Shown in pieces: positions 3,417-58,063 of a DNA stretch of 64,000 bases; the stretch's first letter is position 1; every line of letters starts with the position of its first letter. This DNA is from a virus. Below the pieces are notes generated by a model. The model made no database searches and was not told the origin of the DNA. It saw nothing but the letters and a program-made list of their open reading frames with translations. The DNA lies in the IMG/VR virus record IMGVR_UViG_3300002180_000002. One strand, written 5' to 3'. The translations under genes were made by a program, and so were the position numbers.

Positions 3417-3977
3417 ATGTTAGAATTTTTATTAAAATGTAAATATTACAATAAATCATTAAATGCTTTTTCAGGGTATTTTAATGTTGATATTATAGAT
3501 ATTGAATTTATGTATAATCACTTTCTAAACACAAAAGAGTACCTCTTAGATGATTATGTAGAATTAATACATTTATCTTGGGAGGTTGATAAAAATACTT
3601 TCTACAATAAAGAAGAATTAGATTCATTTTGTAGAAAACAATCTAAATTTAGAAAACTTAACTTTTTAGATTATGATATATTAAGCGCTTGTAGATTAAA
3701 AATAAAACAATCAAGAAATTATTTAGTAAAATATAATGAATATTTAAGTCAAAAACCAAGAAAATATGCACAAGCTTTTATATCTAAAAAAAATATAAGA
3801 GAATTTATTTTTAAACGAGACAATTATATGTGTTTATCCTGCGGTAGCTTACATAAATTAACCATAGATCATATACAATCTATTTATTCAGGAGGTTTAA
3901 ATAGATTGTATAACTTACAAACGTTATGTGGTAGTTGTAATTCAAGCAAATCTACTAAATATATAGATTACAGATAA
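3417..3977 (+). CDS. HNH endonuclease
   Basis: C-terminal CLSCGS...LTIDHIQSIYSGGLNRLYNLQTLCGSCNSSKS is a CxxC...DH...N...CxxCN HNH signature. Confidence 0.85.
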   Translation: MLEFLLKCKYYNKSLNAFSGYFNVDIIDIEFMYNHFLNTKEYLLDDYVELIHLSWEVDKNTFYNKEELDSFCRKQSKFRKLNFLDYDILSACRLKIKQSRNYLVKYNEYLSQKPRKYAQAFISKKNIREFIFKRDNYMCLSCGSLHKLTIDHIQSIYSGGLNRLYNLQTLCGSCNSSKSTKYIDYR

Positions 3978-4801
3978 TGAGTTGGATTAAAATACATAAA
4001 AAGATTTTGAAGTGGGAATGGTATGATGATATTCCTGTTAGGGTAACTTTTTTCCATTTACTTTTAAAAGCTAATTGGAAAGAAAAACAATGGAAAGGTA
4101 TCACTATTAAAAGGGGGCAAGTATTAACAGGGTCTATTTCTACACCTAAAGAAATAGTTATCTCAAGACAGCAATTTAGACGTGCAATTAAAGTTTTAAT
4201 TTCTAACCAAACAATAACCACAGAGCCAACCAACAGAAATACGTTGATAACCATTGTTAATTATGATGATTATCAAGTTAAAGAAAAGAAAACAACCAAC
4301 AAAAAACCACCTAAACAACCAACAAATAACCAACAGATAACCACTACTAAAGAATATAAAGAATATAAAGAATATAAGAATAAAGAAGACTACATACTTG
4401 TTCTTGATAATATTCTTTTATCTGAAATTGTAATTTCAGACGTGCCTGAAAAATTAAAATTTTATTTTAAAACAGCAAAAAGCTTTCAAGAACTTTTTAT
4501 AAAAAATTTGAAGGACAAAAAATCACCAACCACACATCAAGATAAGGCAAAATTTAAAAGTTATGTTGATCCAGTACGATTAATGTTTGATATAGATAAA
4601 GTTGAAAGAGAACAATTATTAAAAGTTTATAATTTTCTAAATAGCCCTAATTCTGAAAAAGGAGATTTTTCATGGAAAGTAAACATTCTTTCTACAAAAA
4701 AATTAAGAGAAAAATTTCAACAACTTTCTGCAAAAGCAAATACAAGTAATAAATCTACAAATAATTCACAAAAAACATTTTCAAAAAACAGAAACTCATG
4801 A
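3977..4801 (+). CDS. putative replication organizer / winged-helix DNA-binding protein
   Basis: The N-terminus MSWIKIHKKILKWEWYDD...RGQVLTGS...QQFRRAIKVL resembles phage replication-organizer wHTH domains. A DnaC-like ATPase gene follows. Contains a KEYKEYKEYK repeat. Confidence 0.45.
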   Translation: MSWIKIHKKILKWEWYDDIPVRVTFFHLLLKANWKEKQWKGITIKRGQVLTGSISTPKEIVISRQQFRRAIKVLISNQTITTEPTNRNTLITIVNYDDYQVKEKKTTNKKPPKQPTNNQQITTTKEYKEYKEYKNKEDYILVLDNILLSEIVISDVPEKLKFYFKTAKSFQELFIKNLKDKKSPTTHQDKAKFKSYVDPVRLMFDIDKVEREQLLKVYNFLNSPNSEKGDFSWKVNILSTKKLREKFQQLSAKANTSNKSTNNSQKTFSKNRNS

Positions 4802-5786: not shown

Positions 5787-6086
5787 ATGAAACATAAAGT
5801 TGACTTTGGTAGAGCGATTAAGTTCGTTAGAGAAAAAAAAGGGTTAAATCAAGAACAGCTTGGAAATAAAGTTGATTCTAATCAACCATACATATCACAA
5901 ATCGAAAGAGGTGTGTTCAATCCATCTATTAAGTTTATTGAGAAAATATGCAAGGCGCTTAATATTCCTTTTGTTTTTATGGTATGGCACTCAATGACAG
6001 AGGAAAATATTTCAGAAGAAAAAAGAGAAGCGTTTAAAATGTTAAAGCCATCTATTGATAATATTTTTAATGATCTTTTAAAATAA
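5787..6086 (+). CDS. XRE-family helix-turn-helix transcriptional regulator
   Basis: FGRAIKFVREKKGLNQEQLGNKVDSNQPYISQIERGVFNPSIKFIEKICKALNIP is a classic HTH_XRE domain. Confidence 0.85.
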   Translation: MKHKVDFGRAIKFVREKKGLNQEQLGNKVDSNQPYISQIERGVFNPSIKFIEKICKALNIPFVFMVWHSMTEENISEEKREAFKMLKPSIDNIFNDLLK

Positions 6087-6090
6087 TATA

Positions 6091-6615
6091 ATGGAAAACA
6101 CACCTGAAAATAAAGCAATATTTCTACGATCTTGTATTGGAGAGTATCTTTTTGAAGAAAATATTTCAGAAATGAAAACTTGGCACATTCATTCAGTTGA
6201 TATGAACGGAGTGGTTAAGGTTATCCACACTAAAGATGATATGGCGTTGGTTGCTGAAATAGACGATATTGTTGTTGCAAAAAAACCATTATCACATATT
6301 TCTGATGAAGATGCTATTGAAGTTGGTAAAATACAAGCATGGTGGCAATCAGTAAAGTATAAATCATTAAAGTGTGAAACACGAAAAGATAATTTTCTAA
6401 TTAGTCATGCAAAAAATGATATACAACAGGCTTTGCTGGAATTAAAGAATAATAAAAATGATTTCACAATGATACCATCAAGTTATGATTATCTACGTTC
6501 AAAAGGCTATGCATTACCTTTTAACGGTGTATCAGTTGAAACCCTTATTGAACGGGGTTGGATAAAACTTAAAAAGTATAATAATACTAGAACAACTACT
6601 AACATAACTTGTTAA
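6091..6615 (+). CDS. hypothetical protein
   Basis: 174-aa ORF starting 5 nt after the XRE gene. Confidence 0.5.
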   Translation: MENTPENKAIFLRSCIGEYLFEENISEMKTWHIHSVDMNGVVKVIHTKDDMALVAEIDDIVVAKKPLSHISDEDAIEVGKIQAWWQSVKYKSLKCETRKDNFLISHAKNDIQQALLELKNNKNDFTMIPSSYDYLRSKGYALPFNGVSVETLIERGWIKLKKYNNTRTTTNITC

Positions 6616-6646
6616 TTATAGAAATAACTGAATAATTGTACTAATC

Positions 6647-6811
6647 ATGAAAGCTATTGAATTAGAAATAGGGATGTGTATTTGGGTCAAGGAATACAAA
6701 GAATGGTTAAGTATTGAAGATGTAAATATCACACTTGGACGGACAGCTGTAACATTTGAAAATGGAGATACTTTGTTTTTTAATGAACGAAGAAGATTTG
6801 TAGAACTTTAA
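6647..6811 (+). CDS. small hypothetical protein (54 aa)
   Basis: ATG ORF read by hand in a gap of the ORF track; co-directional with its neighbours. Confidence 0.3.
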   Translation: MKAIELEIGMCIWVKEYKEWLSIEDVNITLGRTAVTFENGDTLFFNERRRFVEL

Positions 6812-7030: not shown

Positions 7031-7162
7031 ATGACACCTAAAGAAATTAGAAAACACATAGAAGATTTTTTGTTGAATAGCAGAAATAAAATAACAATTA
7101 TAAGTTCAAAAAAGCAACTGAACTATGCAATTGACGATTATATTAAAAACTTAAAACTGTAG
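7031..7162 (+). CDS. small hypothetical protein (43 aa)
   Basis: ATG ORF read by hand. Its stop lies inside an AACTGTAG motif. Confidence 0.25.
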   Translation: MTPKEIRKHIEDFLLNSRNKITIISSKKQLNYAIDDYIKNLKL

Positions 7163-7289
7163 GTTGAATGTACTACAACGGTTTTGTATATGAAAAGTAG
7201 CGTGTAAGTATTCGCATACTTTTCCGACTAAAATACCGTTATTAAATAAGCTAATCAAATTAAATTTGGCACGGAATTAGCTATTTTTT

Positions 7290-7307
7290 ATATACGTTGT
7301 TGGCAAC
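7290..7307. repeat. left inverted repeat flanking the hicBA-like cassette
   Basis: ATATACGTTGTTGGCAAC. Its reverse complement matches 8092-8113 (GTTGCCAA-CTCG-CAACGTATAT) apart from a 4-nt insertion. Confidence 0.7.
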
Positions 7308-7340
7308 TGTTATTTTTTTCTTATATTTCAGATTATAAAG

Positions 7341-7370
7341 TTGTTGATAAAGTACAATTATATATATTTG
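7341..7370 (+). promoter_or_regulatory. candidate host-type promoter for the hicBA-like pair
   Basis: TTGTTG (7341-7346), spacer, then a perfect TAtaTTTG (7363-7370) 15 nt before the ATG at 7386. Confidence 0.4.
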
Positions 7371-7385
7371 ACAAAATTTTAAAAA

Positions 7386-7766
7386 ATGGATAAAAAACAA
7401 GCAAACGCTAAATATTCCGACGGAAGAAGGAATGTAGAATTTAATGTTTCAATTTTTTTATGGGAAGAAGATTCTATTTTTTATGTTTATTCTCCAGCTC
7501 TAGACTTAACAGGATATGGAATATCTAAAGATGAAGCTAGAGAATCTTTTGAAACTGTTTTGCACGAGTTCGTAAAATATACTCACAATAAGAAGACAAT
7601 ATTTCAAGAGTTAGAAAACCTTGGTTGGGCTGTTAATAAGAGAAAAAAGAGAGTTGTTTCTCCTGATTTTGAGGATATGCTTTCTGAAAATGAACATTTC
7701 AAGCATTTATATAAATCCAAAGATTTAGTGAGAGATTCGTCTAATGTTAATTTAGAACTCGCATAA
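7386..7766 (+). CDS. hicB: HicB-like antitoxin
   Basis: EFNVSIFLWEEDSIFYVYSPALDLTGYGISKDEARESFETVLHEFVKY fits the HicB/UPF0150 N-domain pattern. Directly followed by a HicA-like ORF. Confidence 0.6.
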   Translation: MDKKQANAKYSDGRRNVEFNVSIFLWEEDSIFYVYSPALDLTGYGISKDEARESFETVLHEFVKYTHNKKTIFQELENLGWAVNKRKKRVVSPDFEDMLSENEHFKHLYKSKDLVRDSSNVNLELA

Positions 7767-8066
7767 ATGTCAACTAAACATCTACGAAACGTAACAATCT
7801 CTCAACTAGAATCGTTTCTAGAGCTTTGTCTGTGCAAATTTATTAAAAGTAAAAAAGGTCACGCTCAATATACTAGGTCAGACTTAACTAGACCATTACC
7901 TTTTCAAAATCACATTGAACCTGTTCCAGAATTTATCGTACAAAACCTTTTAAGAGGCTTGGGTTATTCCAAAAAAGATTTTCACGCCATACTCGACCAA
8001 AAAAAAGAAGTCGTAAAGATTGGAAGTAAATATGTGATTAGAGATATAGTCAAAAAGAAAAAATAA
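7767..8066 (+). CDS. hicA: HicA-like mRNA interferase toxin
   Basis: LESFLELCLCKFIKSKKGHAQY...PLPFQNHIEPVPEFIVQNLLRGLG fits the HicA/YcfA pattern (G-x-H, then P..H....l...il..lG). TAAATG junction with the hicB-like gene. Confidence 0.6.
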   Translation: MSTKHLRNVTISQLESFLELCLCKFIKSKKGHAQYTRSDLTRPLPFQNHIEPVPEFIVQNLLRGLGYSKKDFHAILDQKKEVVKIGSKYVIRDIVKKKK

Positions 8067-8091
8067 TCATTCTCGTTTCCGTTCCGTAATT

Positions 8092-8113
8092 GTTGCCAAC
8101 TCGCAACGTATAT
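8092..8113. repeat. right inverted repeat flanking the hicBA-like cassette
   Basis: GTTGCCAACTCGCAACGTATAT. It is complementary to 7290-7307, and part of it (8098-8111) is also complementary to 8252-8265. Confidence 0.7.
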
Positions 8114-8582
8114 GCCTCGTGGATGCGCAGCATACACATAAGAGGCTATGGCTGCGCATCTATTAGGCATATACCTTGTTAGATGAGCGTTTTGTAAGCG
8201 TAGACGCAGATAATTAATTAAACAAGCACTGACCTTAGTCGATGCGTAGACATACGTTGCGAGTTAGAGGTCATTGAGCAAAAAAAGAGAAATATTAATA
8301 ATTTATAAAAAGGGTTTGTTACCAAGTGAGCATCTGTCTCCTGTTTCCTGCAACTTAGTGGCTAGACGGATAATCTATCTTGTCTTATATAAAGCGTGGG
8401 GCGTGTTCTGGTCGAATACGTCAACCGATAGACCTAACTCTAGTGTTCAGCTATGCAGCTTACCAAGTATGCGATACCTAGCCGTAGCGACCCTTTTTAT
8501 AAATTATTACTGTTTCTTTTTGCGGTGCTTGCACAATGACCTCTAACAAAAGATATAAAGCATCGTTTTAATGTGCTTTATA
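8092..8582 (+). other. GC-rich, highly structured non-coding island (candidate ncRNA or gene remnant)
   Basis: Perfect long-range complements: 8098-8111/8252-8265 (14 bp) and 8264-8276/8534-8546 (13 bp). Nested hairpin 8108-8117/8165-8174 plus 8122-8131/8151-8160. Terminal hairpin 8554-8582. Only alternative-start ORFs are present. Confidence 0.45.
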
Positions 8583-8628
8583 TAAAGTTGTAGAACGTTC
8601 AAATTTTAACTAAAAACAAACTGTAATT

Positions 8629-8769
8629 ATGGCAAAAGATAAATTTATCGAGAAAATGGAAAAAGAATGTAAAGAGGACAATCACAAGTTTAGCGAGTGG
8701 ATTCCTTTCGATGATTTGGAAGATACTAGGAATTGTATTTTTTGTTCTGAAACCGAGTATAAATTTTAA
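8629..8769 (+). CDS. small hypothetical protein (46 aa), possible zinc-ribbon
   Basis: ATG ORF read by hand, with C..DNH...C..C spacing. Its stop lies in TTAACTGTAG. Confidence 0.3.
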   Translation: MAKDKFIEKMEKECKEDNHKFSEWIPFDDLEDTRNCIFCSETEYKF

Positions 8770-8777
8770 CTGTAGTT

Positions 8778-8933
8778 ATGAAAAAATCATTTATAAATAC
8801 AGAAGAAGCTAATCAAATTTCACAAAGCGAAATAATTGCTGGATTAGAGAAACTTCAAGACAAAATAAAAGAACGTAAAATTAGAGATCGTAAGGCTGAA
8901 CAAAATTTTAATTGGTATTTACAATGTAACTAA
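8778..8933 (+). CDS. small hypothetical protein (51 aa)
   Basis: ATG ORF read by hand; the stop is followed by AAACTGTAGG. Confidence 0.25.
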   Translation: MKKSFINTEEANQISQSEIIAGLEKLQDKIKERKIRDRKAEQNFNWYLQCN

Positions 8934-8949
8934 AACTGTAGGATTTTAA

Positions 8950-9438
8950 TTATTTATTAAAATAATCCTCAAGAACAGAAGACAACTCTCTCTTATGATC
9001 TTTCCTAACAAGATTATCAGAAACCATAAAACGATCATTATTCTTTAGTGAATCAATAAAACAATCCACTATTTCTACACCAAAAGGGGTAAGCATATAT
9101 TTAAAACTTTCATTTCTACTTTCCACGATTTTAGAAACCATTCCCATATTAAGATAATTCTGAATATTAATTGTAGTATTATGTTTTTTAATTCTATAAT
9201 TAAAAACTCCTAATTCCTTAAAATACAGCAGGTTCAATATATGTTTGTGATCTAAAGCATACTTCTCACTAACATAATCTAAATGAAAACCAAGGAAATA
9301 TACTGGCAATATTCCTCTAACAGGTTCTTCAAGTAAGACACTTTTTGTTAAATACGGTTTTTCTTCATTTGTTATTACAACTTCATTTTCAGACTTTAAT
9401 TCTATTGGTTTATATGATGCCATAACCCAAATATACAA
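8950..9438 (-). CDS. hypothetical protein (only leftward gene in this block)
   Basis: 162-aa ORF; the start may instead be the MASYKP methionine at 9423. Divergent from the virion module. A CAAAatTA motif (9482-9489) could be its -7 element. Confidence 0.5.
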   Translation of the reverse strand: MYIWVMASYKPIELKSENEVVITNEEKPYLTKSVLLEEPVRGILPVYFLGFHLDYVSEKYALDHKHILNLLYFKELGVFNYRIKKHNTTINIQNYLNMGMVSKIVESRNESFKYMLTPFGVEIVDCFIDSLKNNDRFMVSDNLVRKDHKRELSSVLEDYFNK

Positions 9439-19504: not shown

Positions 19505-19924
19505 TTAATGTTCAATAACTCTAACCATTTCTATTGCATTTGTACTTCCTTTTTTAAAGCCACAATCCTCATATCTTTTCAAGAGAGATTCATTTTTTAA
19601 TGAAGTATAAACAACAGTTCCACCTAAAGATTTTATATTTTCTAATAAAGAATTTATTAAAGCATTAAGAGCTTCTTTTCTTAATAATCTATCTTTAACA
19701 TTAGGGTTACTAACAATCCACTCTATATGAAATAATATAGGAGATGATGTAGCGTACATAAAACCACAACAGATAGGAATATTATTTTGCATAATCATAA
19801 TTCCATTTTTTCCTTGATTAGGAAGTAAGTTTTGGGATGGACTCGTAAAACGAAACCACTTCCACCAATCAAGAAGCATTTCATAATCTTGTAATGTTGT
19901 TTGTCGTAGTTGAAGTTCACTCAT
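19505..19924 (-). CDS. GNAT-family N-acetyltransferase
   Basis: 139-aa ORF on the opposite strand. The ...ALNALINSLLENIKSLGGTVVYTSLKNESLLKRYEDCGFKKG end fits a GNAT fold. Confidence 0.65.
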   Translation of the reverse strand: MSELQLRQTTLQDYEMLLDWWKWFRFTSPSQNLLPNQGKNGIMIMQNNIPICCGFMYATSSPILFHIEWIVSNPNVKDRLLRKEALNALINSLLENIKSLGGTVVYTSLKNESLLKRYEDCGFKKGSTNAIEMVRVIEH

Positions 19925-19995
19925 ACAACAAAGATAATATATTACCTATGAATAAATTAGTTTTTATTTTAATATACTATATTTGTATTTATACA

Positions 19996-20778
19996 ATGAA
20001 TATTGGAATTTACAAAATAACATCGCCTAAAGGAAGAATATATATAGGTTCTTCTAAAAACATAACAAAAAGGTTTAAGGATTATCAATACCTAAATTGT
20101 AAATCACAAACTAGACTTTACAATTCCTTCATTAAATATGGTGTAGATAACCATATATTTGAAATTATAACAGAATGTGATATTCAAGAAATGTTATCTA
20201 TGGAACTTCATTGGGGATTATTTTATAATGTTTTAGATAGAAAAGCAGGGCTTAACTCAAAACTACCTAAAAATAATGAAAATTATAATGTAGTATCAAA
20301 TGAAACAAAAGATAAAATAAGCAAGTCATTAACAGGTAGAGTCTCCCCAATGAAAGGAAAAAAAACTGGGAAACCTGCATGGAATAAAGGATTAAAGTTA
20401 AATGGTGTTTCTCATAGAAAAGGAAAAAAACTTTCAAAAGAATCCAAAAAGAAAATGAGTCTGTCTAGTATAGGTCAAGTTCCATGGAATAAAGGAATAT
20501 CTCCTTCAAATAAAACAAGAGAAAAACTTTCAAAAGCTTTAAAAGGGAGAGAAGTTTGGAATAAAGGTATTAAATGGAGTGAAGAATCTAAAAAGAAAAT
20601 GTCTATAAGCTCTAAAGGAAGTATTCCTGCAAACAGAAAAATTATTTTAGACGAATTAACTGGTGTTTTTTATTTAAGTATTACAGAAGCTAGTCAAATA
20701 TTAAATATGAAAAGAAGGACACTACAAGCAATGCTCACTAATCAAAACCCAAATAAAACAAGTTTAATTTACGCTTAA
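19996..20778 (+). CDS. GIY-YIG homing endonuclease with NUMOD3-like repeats
   Basis: MNIGIYKITSPKGRIYIGSSKNITKRFKDYQ (GIY...YIG) plus repeated S.S..G...WNKG motifs. The ATG at 19996 is preferred over the longer track ORF. Confidence 0.85.
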   Translation: MNIGIYKITSPKGRIYIGSSKNITKRFKDYQYLNCKSQTRLYNSFIKYGVDNHIFEIITECDIQEMLSMELHWGLFYNVLDRKAGLNSKLPKNNENYNVVSNETKDKISKSLTGRVSPMKGKKTGKPAWNKGLKLNGVSHRKGKKLSKESKKKMSLSSIGQVPWNKGISPSNKTREKLSKALKGREVWNKGIKWSEESKKKMSISSKGSIPANRKIILDELTGVFYLSITEASQILNMKRRTLQAMLTNQNPNKTSLIYA

Positions 20779-39553: not shown

Positions 39554-39794
39554 TTCAAAACCTTCAATTATTAGATTTATTATAGTTTGCATGATTGTAT
39601 ATGTAAGCGGTTACATAGTCGCGAACATAACAGGAAATATTACAAACGTTTATGTTTTGTATGAAATATTTTGGTTGTTATTTTTTTCTTTTGTGTTTAC
39701 CGCAGGATTAATTTCTATTTGGAATGAATTTAAGTGTGGTTTATTCAAGTTGTTGAAAAGACAGATTAAAATTTTTTTATATAAAATAATATAA
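39543..39794 (+). CDS. membrane protein
   Basis: 83 aa with 2-3 hydrophobic segments. Confidence 0.45.
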   Translation: MLFNSKPSIIRFIIVCMIVYVSGYIVANITGNITNVYVLYEIFWLLFFSFVFTAGLISIWNEFKCGLFKLLKRQIKIFLYKII

Positions 39795-40198
39795 TGAATA
39801 TTAGATTTTTATTTTATACCCCATCAATAGTTGATTTATTTCAAGTTGTTGCTAATGAAAAAGAAAACATTGATTTTGTTTTTTTAACTATTGCTATAAT
39901 AACAGGAATAATAGGGTCAGGCGTAAGAGTTGCTTATGAAAAACAAAGTAAAAAAGTAAGTTCAAATAGAATATTATTTATTCTTATTTGCTCTTTAGCA
40001 GTAAGTTATGGAATATATGAATTCACAACAATATACAAGCATCGTAACTTTATAGGTCTTATCTCTATTCTTGGAGGAATTATAAGCATAGACATTATTA
40101 AATTTATTATAGAAGACTTACCTTCTATAGGTAAAGAAATAGTTAGAAAACAAGCTAAGTTAGAAAATAAAAATAAAGACAATAATAAAGAGTTATGA
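39794..40198 (+). CDS. membrane protein (holin candidate)
   Basis: 134 aa with 3-4 hydrophobic segments and a charged tail. ATGA overlap with the amidase gene. Confidence 0.45.
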   Translation: MNIRFLFYTPSIVDLFQVVANEKENIDFVFLTIAIITGIIGSGVRVAYEKQSKKVSSNRILFILICSLAVSYGIYEFTTIYKHRNFIGLISILGGIISIDIIKFIIEDLPSIGKEIVRKQAKLENKNKDNNKEL

Positions 40199-40848
40199 CA
40201 AAGCCAAAAGTAATAAACCACGTATTCCCCGAAGATCAATATTATCCTATTAATACTGAAAAGAAACAAATCGTATTACATCATACAGTTTCAGGAGATA
40301 ATGTTGATGGAGATATTAATTGGTGGAAACAAACACCTCAACATGTCGCTACTTGTATTATAGTAGATCGTGATGGAACAATCCACACTTTATTTAGTTC
40401 AGAACATTGGGCGCATCATTTAGGTATTAAGAAGTATATATTCAATAAGTTTAATATTCCAAATTACGGAGCAAACAAGAAATTGAATCAAGGCGCAATC
40501 GGTCTTGAAATTGATTCTTGGGGAGGTATTGTAAAAAGAAACGGTAATTTTTATCGTTCAGGAGATAGAAAAATATCGGCAGATAAAGTAATTGATTACG
40601 GTAGAGAAATTAGAGGTTTCAGATACTACGAAAAATACACGCAAGCTCAAATTAACACCACAGTTTATTTATTAAAGTACTGGAATGATAAATATGGCAT
40701 TCCAATTAATTATAATCCTGAAATGTGGAATTTAAGTGAAGAAGCATTAAAAGGAAAAGCAGGTGTTTGGACTCATGTTAGTTTCAGACCTGACAAGAGC
40801 GATTGTCACCCTTACCCGCCACTTATTGAAGCATTAAAAAGACTATAA
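40195..40848 (+). CDS. N-acetylmuramoyl-L-alanine amidase (PGRP/amidase_2-type endolysin)
   Basis: QIVLHHTVS..., IGLEIDSWG and THVSFRPDKSDCHPY match the Zn-amidase pattern. Confidence 0.75.
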   Translation: MTKPKVINHVFPEDQYYPINTEKKQIVLHHTVSGDNVDGDINWWKQTPQHVATCIIVDRDGTIHTLFSSEHWAHHLGIKKYIFNKFNIPNYGANKKLNQGAIGLEIDSWGGIVKRNGNFYRSGDRKISADKVIDYGREIRGFRYYEKYTQAQINTTVYLLKYWNDKYGIPINYNPEMWNLSEEALKGKAGVWTHVSFRPDKSDCHPYPPLIEALKRL

Positions 40849-57893: not shown

Positions 57894-57991
57894 CCTAAAA
57901 AAATGCACCGCGAAACAGGATAACGTCAAGGTAATTTAAACCTATCTAATAAACTGTATGACGGTGCATACCATTATTTCTATCTTACTAG

Positions 57992-58063
57992 AAGCGAGAA
58001 AGGGAATCGAACCCTTGCATAGCGGTTTTGCAGACCGCCGTGTTTCCACTTCACCATTTCGCC
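57992..58063 (-). tRNA. tRNA-Cys (anticodon GCA)
   Basis: Reverse complement: GGCGAAA-TG-GTGAAGTGGAAACAC-G-GCGGT-CTGCAAA-ACCGC-TATGC-AAGGG-TTCGATT-CCCTT-TCTCGCT-T. It forms a cloverleaf with discriminator U73. The acceptor stem has one A:C mismatch and one G:U pair. Confidence 0.7.

Follow-up and report, generated by a model that had tools for sequence, protein, structure and literature searches.

A G+C-rich island in a 64,000-nucleotide stretch of viral DNA (IMG/VR record IMGVR_UViG_3300002180_000002, hereafter the window) is one copy of a heavily base-paired, previously undescribed element. We recovered about 40 homologous copies from the genomes of Flavobacteriaceae, from phages of this family and from marine metagenomes, and every helix of the element is backed by compensatory changes. 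With a probability of roughly 45%, we read the element as a cis-acting, bistable RNA frame that would punctuate polycistronic transcripts and gate the cargo carried within them, a function that we infer from fold and conservation.

The island and its homologues

The element (8098–8585, + strand) has a fold energy of −182.8 kcal/mol, as compared with −129.9 ± 6.0 kcal/mol for shuffled sequences (z = −8.9; 0/100 shuffles), which places the folding of the island far outside chance expectation; the − strand of the same element folds more weakly (z = −7.8). The G+C content of 8000–8599 is 37–43%, against 24–32% in 200-nt segments outside it (e.g. 7200–7899 and 8600–8999), bearing out the compositional contrast that had been remarked on in an earlier, sequence-only reading of the DNA. 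The same reading had reported an island free of ATG-initiated ORFs. This holds for the + strand, which carries TTG-started open frames including one of 90 aa at 8274–8546; on the − strand, two ORFs with ATG starts (62 and 30 aa) overlap 8067–8170 and are probably spurious. Rfam 15 covariance models gave no match to window positions 8067–8600 at E-values up to 10, nor to the homologous copies in loci L005, L009, L013, L015, L048 and L049 at E-values up to 1. A scan for sigma-70 promoters and terminators gave nothing above background, and no description of the element was found in the literature searched. The tRNA/tmRNA scan found nothing at the element and only a distant, phage-encoded tRNA-Cys (GCA) at 57991–58063 (− strand). 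The proposal that the island is an uncharacterized structured non-coding RNA has thus stood up, in the sense of a conserved, structured non-coding element without an Rfam match. Its treatment as a single RNA needs amendment: the conserved part is a frame (D1, brackets and D3; Table 1), inside which lies foreign cargo that had been missed.

The search for homologues started from a distant BLASTN match in the Tenacibaculum phage JQ (MT002873.2), a phage of Tenacibaculum geojense with its copy at about 39,600–40,712. This match led to a conserved core and then to pattern scans. These recovered copies in IMG/VR phage contigs, in Winogradskyella, Bizionia, Psychroserpens and Maribacter, in ‘Flavobacteriaceae bacterium PRS1’ and in marine metagenomes; matches in high-G+C genomes were set aside as chance, their lengths differing from the 42 nt of true copies. 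A second round used a covariance model, which brought in diverged copies, and the open frame of the cargo present in the window (cargo X), which led to contigs L048 and L049. In phages, a unit starts 0–30 nt past the stop codon of the upstream gene. One phage has the element between the stop codon of an ORF and the terminator of the operon, and in the related phage L040 the block is missing altogether; a 3′ module ending in an intrinsic terminator is found in L004, L027 and JQ. The PRS1 genome holds at least nine near-identical, ORF-less copies at unrelated sites, each with a sharp 5′ edge at the AAC triplet. Their 5′ flanks are unrelated and share no common promoter, some copies face away from their neighbors, and such dispersed copies within a single genome look like selfish DNA insertions.

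Two further observations concern the DNA in and around the homologues. Two different copies (L014 ~3890 and L023 ~700) are each interrupted by an IS3-family insertion sequence at the same nucleotide, just after ...CACTTGTGCAAT, which suggests that the site is preferred or that copies have recombined with one another. Intergenic DNA near the elements and between neighboring small ORFs repeatedly contains the motif GCGTTGGC(A) (L006 ~2800 and ~2515; L015 ~3950–4000; L003 ~4680).

The window itself represents a phage of the Tenacibaculum/Flavobacteriaceae type with low G+C content. In its structural genes it is similar to Tenacibaculum phage Gundel_1, and upstream of the element there is a replication module whose loaders are DnaD-like and DnaC-like; close relatives of the phage were sought through the neighboring proteins, and none was found. 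Neighboring genes had been labeled hicA (7767–8066) and hicB, but neither label is supported by Pfam, PHROGs or NCBIfam, the sole hint of hicA being a non-significant match of 7767–8066 to PDB 1WHZ (E = 0.92). With the labels failing profile searches and the homologues adjoining unrelated genes, the idea of an RNA associated with a toxin–antitoxin pair is not supported. A repeated motif, TAAAACTGTAGG / AAATTTTAACT, stands just upstream of several small ORF starts in the window (7152–7163, 8931–8942, 8601–8611 and 8761–8771) and may be a phage-specific expression signal. The window also contains free-standing homing-endonuclease-type genes at 3417–3974 and 19894–20778, of the HNH and the GIY-YIG + NUMOD3 type, respectively.

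Anatomy of the frame and its cargo

The conserved 5′ domain, D1, is about 170 nt long, comprises helices P1, P2 and P3 and is closed by the triplets AAC and GUU. Among 17 sequences, 96% of the cells in these helices are paired (28–45% in slid controls), 13 pairs are compensatory, and of 500 shuffles none was as good. The AAC is present in 23 of 24 aligned copies and the GTT in all 24. P1, whose complementarity had been recognized earlier and is perfect over 14 nt, covaries, and the interrupted hairpin described with it is recovered as 8097–8131/8151–8185 (35 nt, 80% complementary). The alignment has about 51 G·U cells and about 3 A·C cells, and the fold therefore belongs to the + strand. In most copies the nucleotides GUGGAUGCGCAGCAUACAC and GGCUGYGCAUC are near-invariant.

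Table 1. Features of the element in the window
Feature	Position	Strand	Remarks
D1, conserved 5′ domain	8098–8265	+	CM R1 score 197 bits; covariation
P1	8098–8111/8252–8265	+	begins AAC, ends GUU
P2	8111–8120/8162–8171	+	
P3	8122–8131/8151–8160	+	
X	8114–8118	+	GCCUC; alternative partners X′ or X″
X′	8142–8146	+	GAGGC, apical loop of P3; pairs with X
T	8241–8249	+	GAUGCGUAG, near-copy of P3 5′ strand
P5, 5′ strand	8193–8199	+	UGUAAGC; pairs with 8527–8533
P6a, P6b, P6c, 5′ arms	8263–8276; 8278–8288; to 8315	+	complement search, compensatory pairs
P6c, P6b, P6a, 3′ arms	8490–8521; 8515–8523; 8534–8547	+	P6a 3′ arm ends in AAC
Cargo X	8297–8509; core 8316–8489 (174 nt)	+	core 46% G+C
D3 hairpin	8554–8582	+	conserved loop CGUUUUAAU (8564–8572), covarying stem
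Outer bracket, upstream arm	7290–7312	+	inverted copy of 8087–8113 minus CGAG
Outer bracket, downstream arm	8087–8100	+	TAATTGTTGCCAAC; ends in the AAC that starts D1

Within D1, X–X′ excludes X–X″ and H–H′ excludes T–H′. The X–X′ pairing, which can make an H-type pseudoknot together with P3 or else replace the inner part of P2, is Watson–Crick in 17/17 sequences, is compensatory at four of its five pairs and is present in 22/22 distinct copies. T can substitute for the 5′ strand of P3 in pairing with 8151–8160. The T–H′ pairing is 98% paired, with one column (60/151) reading UA in nine sequences, CG in four and UG in four, and it covaries in divergent copies. In those copies the sequence of P3 is swapped (e.g. 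UAGGCGUAGC/GCUACGCCUA), and X′ changes along with it, as does T in most. The mutually exclusive pairings that had been proposed from the sequence are therefore real and conserved, and both partners of each alternative covary. The folds X–X″/H–H′ and X–X′/T–H′ are near-isoenergetic in many members, and as modeled the element can switch between the two.

Downstream of D1, bracket helices enclose the cargo. A complement reported earlier between 8264–8276 and 8534–8546 is seen as 8263–8281/8529–8547 (19 nt, 95%); P6a (8263–8276/8534–8547) reads GUU...AAC. The first reading had overlooked a longer stem at 8284–8315/8490–8521 (32 nt, 91%), and P6c reaches 8315/8490. On the 3′ side of the bracket a conserved bulge of 10–12 nt, with the P5 3′ strand at 8527–8533, pairs into D1; the resulting helix, P5, is a pseudoknot that spans the cargo and links D1 to its far side. 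In a composite alignment of 12 sequences, 55 pairs are 94% paired (34–42% in slid controls), 32 are compensatory and 0/500 shuffles were as good. Compensatory pairs make up four of seven in P5 (88% paired), eight of 11 in P6a and all seven in P6b. The helices P3, X–X′, T–H′, P5 and P6 change compensatorily in divergent copies, and P5 does so in the second copy of L027 as well. A crude comparison of cognate with non-cognate P5 strands was weakly discriminating (7.5 vs 6.1 bp), and the claim for P5 is based on the column-wise count and the divergent copies instead.

The D3 hairpin, which had been picked out by eye and is present in the computed fold, recurs in L003 (twice), L005, L009, L013 and phage JQ. 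Stand-alone copies of D3, without D1 and with AACG(T) upstream, lie between other phage genes (L003 ~4386 and ~3024, − strand; L036 ~2172). Their loop is CGTTTTAAT and their stem covaries, and D3 may be a separate punctuation signal.

On the 5′ side, the arms of an outer bracket surround a two-gene module (7386–8066), and their pairing competes with P1. This bracket (7290–7312/8087–8113) explains a third pairing partner noted in the sequence-only reading, which is confirmed at 7299–7312/8087–8100 (86%), with ATATACGTTG at 7290 complementary to 8104–8113. The window holds an outer bracket and one unit, and the downstream arm, whose terminal AAC also starts D1, has the layout of the abutting units in L048. 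The chromosomal copies at L009 (~6282 and ~6610) and L013 follow a Mur-ligase-like (Mpl-like) gene. Their 5′ flank, TTCGTTTAAC, is complementary to GTTAAACGAA beyond D3, giving an outer helix that would close the whole element; an AAC-to-ATC change in L013 is matched by GAT in the partner strand.

The usual cargo of other members is one ORF of 26–90 aa, always on the folding strand, and these ORFs are mutually unrelated. The ORF starts about 45 nt after the GUU, behind an A-rich leader, and in most ORF-bearing copies the leader just before the AUG pairs with the stop-codon region. Some cargos in L027 are small hydrophobic peptides, and the copies in the PRS1 genome have a 75-nt hairpin in the loop and no ORF. 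One frame is common to the window, L012 and L015, with different cargos, and another is common to L004 and L028. An inverton, with inversion between IR-L and IR-R, was rejected since every cargo ORF has the same orientation.

Cargo X is a unit of about 210 bp with a terminal inverted repeat of 15–19 bp, AATAATTTATAAAAAGGGT / ACCCTTTTTATAAATTATT. Besides the window copy, it is found at 90–95% identity in L048 (3995–4215) and L049 (590–815), where gene callers annotated ‘proteins’. A large protein search with the 90-aa frame returned two unnamed relatives only, which are this same non-coding cargo in L048 and L049, and Pfam and tblastn searches gave no relatives. L049 is set apart from the other two copies by a −1/+1 indel pair, and an ATG of L048 and L049 reads ATA in the window; cargo X is therefore probably non-coding. 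As a structured RNA it was rejected, having no significant fold of its own (z = +1.05 and +0.33), and as an antisense it matched nothing in the window or the loci. Cargo X is a conserved, unstructured and probably non-coding sequence. Its brackets differ from contig to contig, so that it has moved independently of the frame; candidate identities are a small mobile element and an RNA gene. As regards features of miniature transposable elements (MITEs), the frame has no terminal inverted repeat and no target-site duplication was found around units beyond the AAC; cargo X has its 15–19-bp repeat and three known copies.

Candidate functions

In the preferred reading, the element would act in the transcript, on the sense strand, and would usually be co-transcribed with the upstream gene. 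The frame runs through D1, from the invariant AAC to the invariant GUU, continues as P6a, P6b and P6c around the cargo and is closed by D3 or a terminator module, with P5 as a clamp between D1 and the bracket's 3′ side; D1 would alternate between its X–X″/H–H′ and X–X′/T–H′ folds. The bracket would hold the A-rich leader of the cargo against the end of the cargo ORF, and this arrangement, taken with a bistable D1, points to two roles. The frame would punctuate polycistronic RNA, its long duplexes being suited to processing or stabilization, and it would gate the translation of whatever the loop contains, in the manner of fold-back-gated mRNAs of the hok type. Constant around variable cargo, the frame would also provide homology or recombinase sites through which cargo can be swapped, duplicated and dispersed.

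This RNA-frame reading is favored by the sense-strand fold, by a bistable design whose three-way covariation is typical of RNA folding pathways such as those of hok mRNAs, by the pairing of the leader with the ORF end, by the association of one frame with different cargos and by the position of units in operons upstream of terminators. The likeness to hok/sok mRNAs includes a long-range 5′–3′ pairing that encloses a small ORF, found here as P6 and P5 across the cargo, and mutually exclusive helices revealed by coupled covariation, found here in X/X′/X″ and H/H′/T. Some cargos are small hydrophobic peptides (L027), and copies occur on phages and chromosomes alike. In contrast to hok mRNAs, which have a conserved ORF for a small hydrophobic toxin, the ORFs carried as cargo show no relationship to one another, often have soluble products and can be missing, and it is the frame, not the ORF, that is conserved.

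An RNA-only model leaves unexplained a role in recombination at the DNA level, which is suggested by the dispersed copies, the AAC-sharing arrays with an exact duplicate, and the Xer neighbors. The main alternative, though a less likely one, is an integron-like or pdif-module-like cassette system, in which D1 and the bracket would form a giant folded single-stranded DNA recombination site resembling attC. AAC and GTT would be the crossover points, a Xer-family recombinase would excise, insert and shuffle units, and a circularized unit (IR-R-AAC-D1-GTT-IR-L) would fold into one long hairpin. The head-to-tail arrays with their common AAC, the duplication of a unit, the dispersal of copies and the neighboring recombinases fit such a site better. 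In L048 (3089–5900), six units with a small ORF in each are arranged head to tail, the AAC at the end of one bracket being the start of the next D1, and units 2 and 6 are identical, ORF included; L027 has two tandem units that also share the AAC. As in integrons, these are tandem, co-oriented and promoterless cassettes whose small ORFs lie between imperfect hairpins conserved in structure, the 5′ end of a unit is complementary to the sequence after its ORF, and isolated copies occur elsewhere in genomes. The AAC and GTT triplets are near-invariant at the base of covarying stems, as they are in the R″ and R′ sequences at the base of the attC hairpin. The dispersed PRS1 copies with their sharp 5′ ends, and the whole block that is present in one phage and missing from its relative, also count in favor of a mobile cassette.

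The same applies to the related Xer-family tyrosine recombinases that adjoin the element in four loci (L006, L048, L015 and L028; 277 aa for the L006 type and 375 aa for the L015 type), for which the best family is ‘XerA / integron integrase’ (XerA-like NF040815). The L048 array ends directly at one such gene (5941–6786), placing an Xer/IntI-clade recombinase beside an array. In L015 (1771–3380) and L028 (20–1619), two unrelated contexts, the element is directly followed on its 3′ side by two divergently oriented genes, a 126–131-aa zinc-ribbon ORF and a 375–376-aa tyrosine recombinase, with the palindrome CGTATCCTATTCGAATAAGATACG between them. However, the recombinases (277–375 aa) score below integron-integrase cutoffs; with the IntI-specific TIGR02249, which matches them in two stretches, they reach 100–196 bits, the cutoff being 265. 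The L048 gene carries an in-frame stop and, unlike an integron integrase, stands at the 3′ end of its array, and a recombinase was found neither at most other loci nor among the window ORFs tested.

The geometry also departs from that of attC. The element folds on the sense strand, which has the G·T excess, whereas attC folds and recombines as the bottom strand. It measures 170 nt, or more than 250 nt with its bracket, and is two to four times as long as any attC (57–141 nt). Its AAC and GTT run straight into the 9–11-bp P1 helix, and the unpaired spacer of attC, whose hairpin has extrahelical bases and an R″-spacer-L″/L′-spacer-R′ arrangement, is absent. In contrast to integrons, the bracket is constant across variable cargos, and cargo X has moved without its bracket. 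Nor do integrons have the pseudoknot and the two alternative folds; we know of no role for a pseudoknot or a conserved bistable switch in att sites. The pdif (Xer) modules of Acinetobacter plasmids are bounded by inverted 28-bp duplex sites of the recombinase type and are thought to be moved by Xer. The units resemble these modules in being bounded by inverted recombinase-type sites and in forming arrays, but the junction here is a 170-nt folded domain in which no XerC/XerD half-sites were identified.

The RNA-frame and recombination-site readings are mutually compatible. It is unlikely, though possible, that the element is the junction of a previously unrecognized gene-cassette platform of marine Flavobacteriaceae phages, in which one bistable, pseudoknotted fold of 170 nt between AAC and GTT would serve in DNA as a site for Xer-family recombinases, by which cargo is captured, duplicated and dispersed, and after transcription as an RNA switch that gates each cargo.

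A self-processing ribozyme or intron-like mobile RNA, with a D1/P5/P6 core, the cargo in a peripheral loop and cleavage or splicing at the AAC junctions, would account for a pseudoknotted core with nucleotides near-invariant in most copies, for cargo in a loop closed by covarying helices, for the sharp unit boundaries and for ORF-less copies in one genome. Group I introns with loop ORFs share the pseudoknotted core, the tolerance of an ORF in a terminal loop and the occurrence in phages. Such an RNA is nevertheless improbable here. No group I (RF00028), group II or small-ribozyme model matches the window (E up to 10) or the loci (E up to 1), the order of helices differs from that of group I introns, and the insertions lie after stop codons or are otherwise intergenic, so that there is no exon to restore. 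Moreover, the near-invariant P3 sequence is wholly replaced in divergent copies, which argues for structure, and not catalytic nucleotides, at that position. A group II intron (RT/maturase, GTGTG 5′ end; 1308–2588 and ~3090) is present in L004 about 1 kb downstream of the element and is unrelated to it.

It is very improbable that the element is a trans-acting structured RNA, such as a protein decoy or sponge, with D1 as the released product and the cargo incidental. The extremely conserved loop and stem sequences could be a protein site, many copies occur in one genome, and cutting of the long bracket duplexes could release a D1 of about 170 nt, but the covarying P5 and P6 tie D1 to the flanks of the cargo and would be needless for a free small RNA. 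Two proposals of the sequence-only reading, that the island is the remnant of a foreign protein gene or a retron msr/msd lacking its reverse transcriptase, are effectively excluded: the 90-aa frame with its two database relatives and the raised G+C would suit a gene remnant, but Pfam and tblastn are negative, those relatives bring in the −1/+1 indel pair, the window lacks the ATG and conservation outside the cargo is of structure and not of codons, while no reverse transcriptase lies near the window copy or any homologue, the only one seen being the group II maturase of L004, P1 closes D1 only, the a1/a2 closure of retrons is absent and the long hairpin is 5′ of the small ones on the G·U-bearing strand, where a retron has its msr hairpins 5′ of a long msd hairpin.

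Among other known classes, the omega RNAs of IS200/605 elements, HEARO and the IS110 bridge RNAs were rejected, with no model match, no IscB, TnpB or IS110 gene nearby and unconserved flanking targets. The PeSL ‘mobile regulatory cassettes’ of T4-type phages consist of a short stem-loop and a promoter. Like the element, they are conserved, repeated non-coding modules found on either side of variable small ORFs in the plastic regions of phages, where recombination between them could shuffle the ORFs; unlike them, the element has a large pseudoknotted domain plus brackets and lacks a recognizable promoter. Taken as a whole, the element fails defining tests of attC, retron ncRNA, group I introns and hok mRNAs and shares features with each of them.

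Implications for phage accessory genes

The element is large and complex in fold and has unusually rich covariation, with two conserved folds and a pseudoknot that forms across up to several hundred nucleotides of arbitrary cargo. The cultured Tenacibaculum phage JQ carries a copy, which opens the question of its function to experiment. If the RNA-switch reading is true, the frame would be a natural expression gate that is independent of its cargo, and if the link to recombinases holds, cassette-array biology would reach beyond classical integrons into the phages of Bacteroidota. For the plastic regions of phage genomes, the element would provide a route by which small accessory genes, often of the anti-defense or host-takeover class, are organized, expressed and exchanged.
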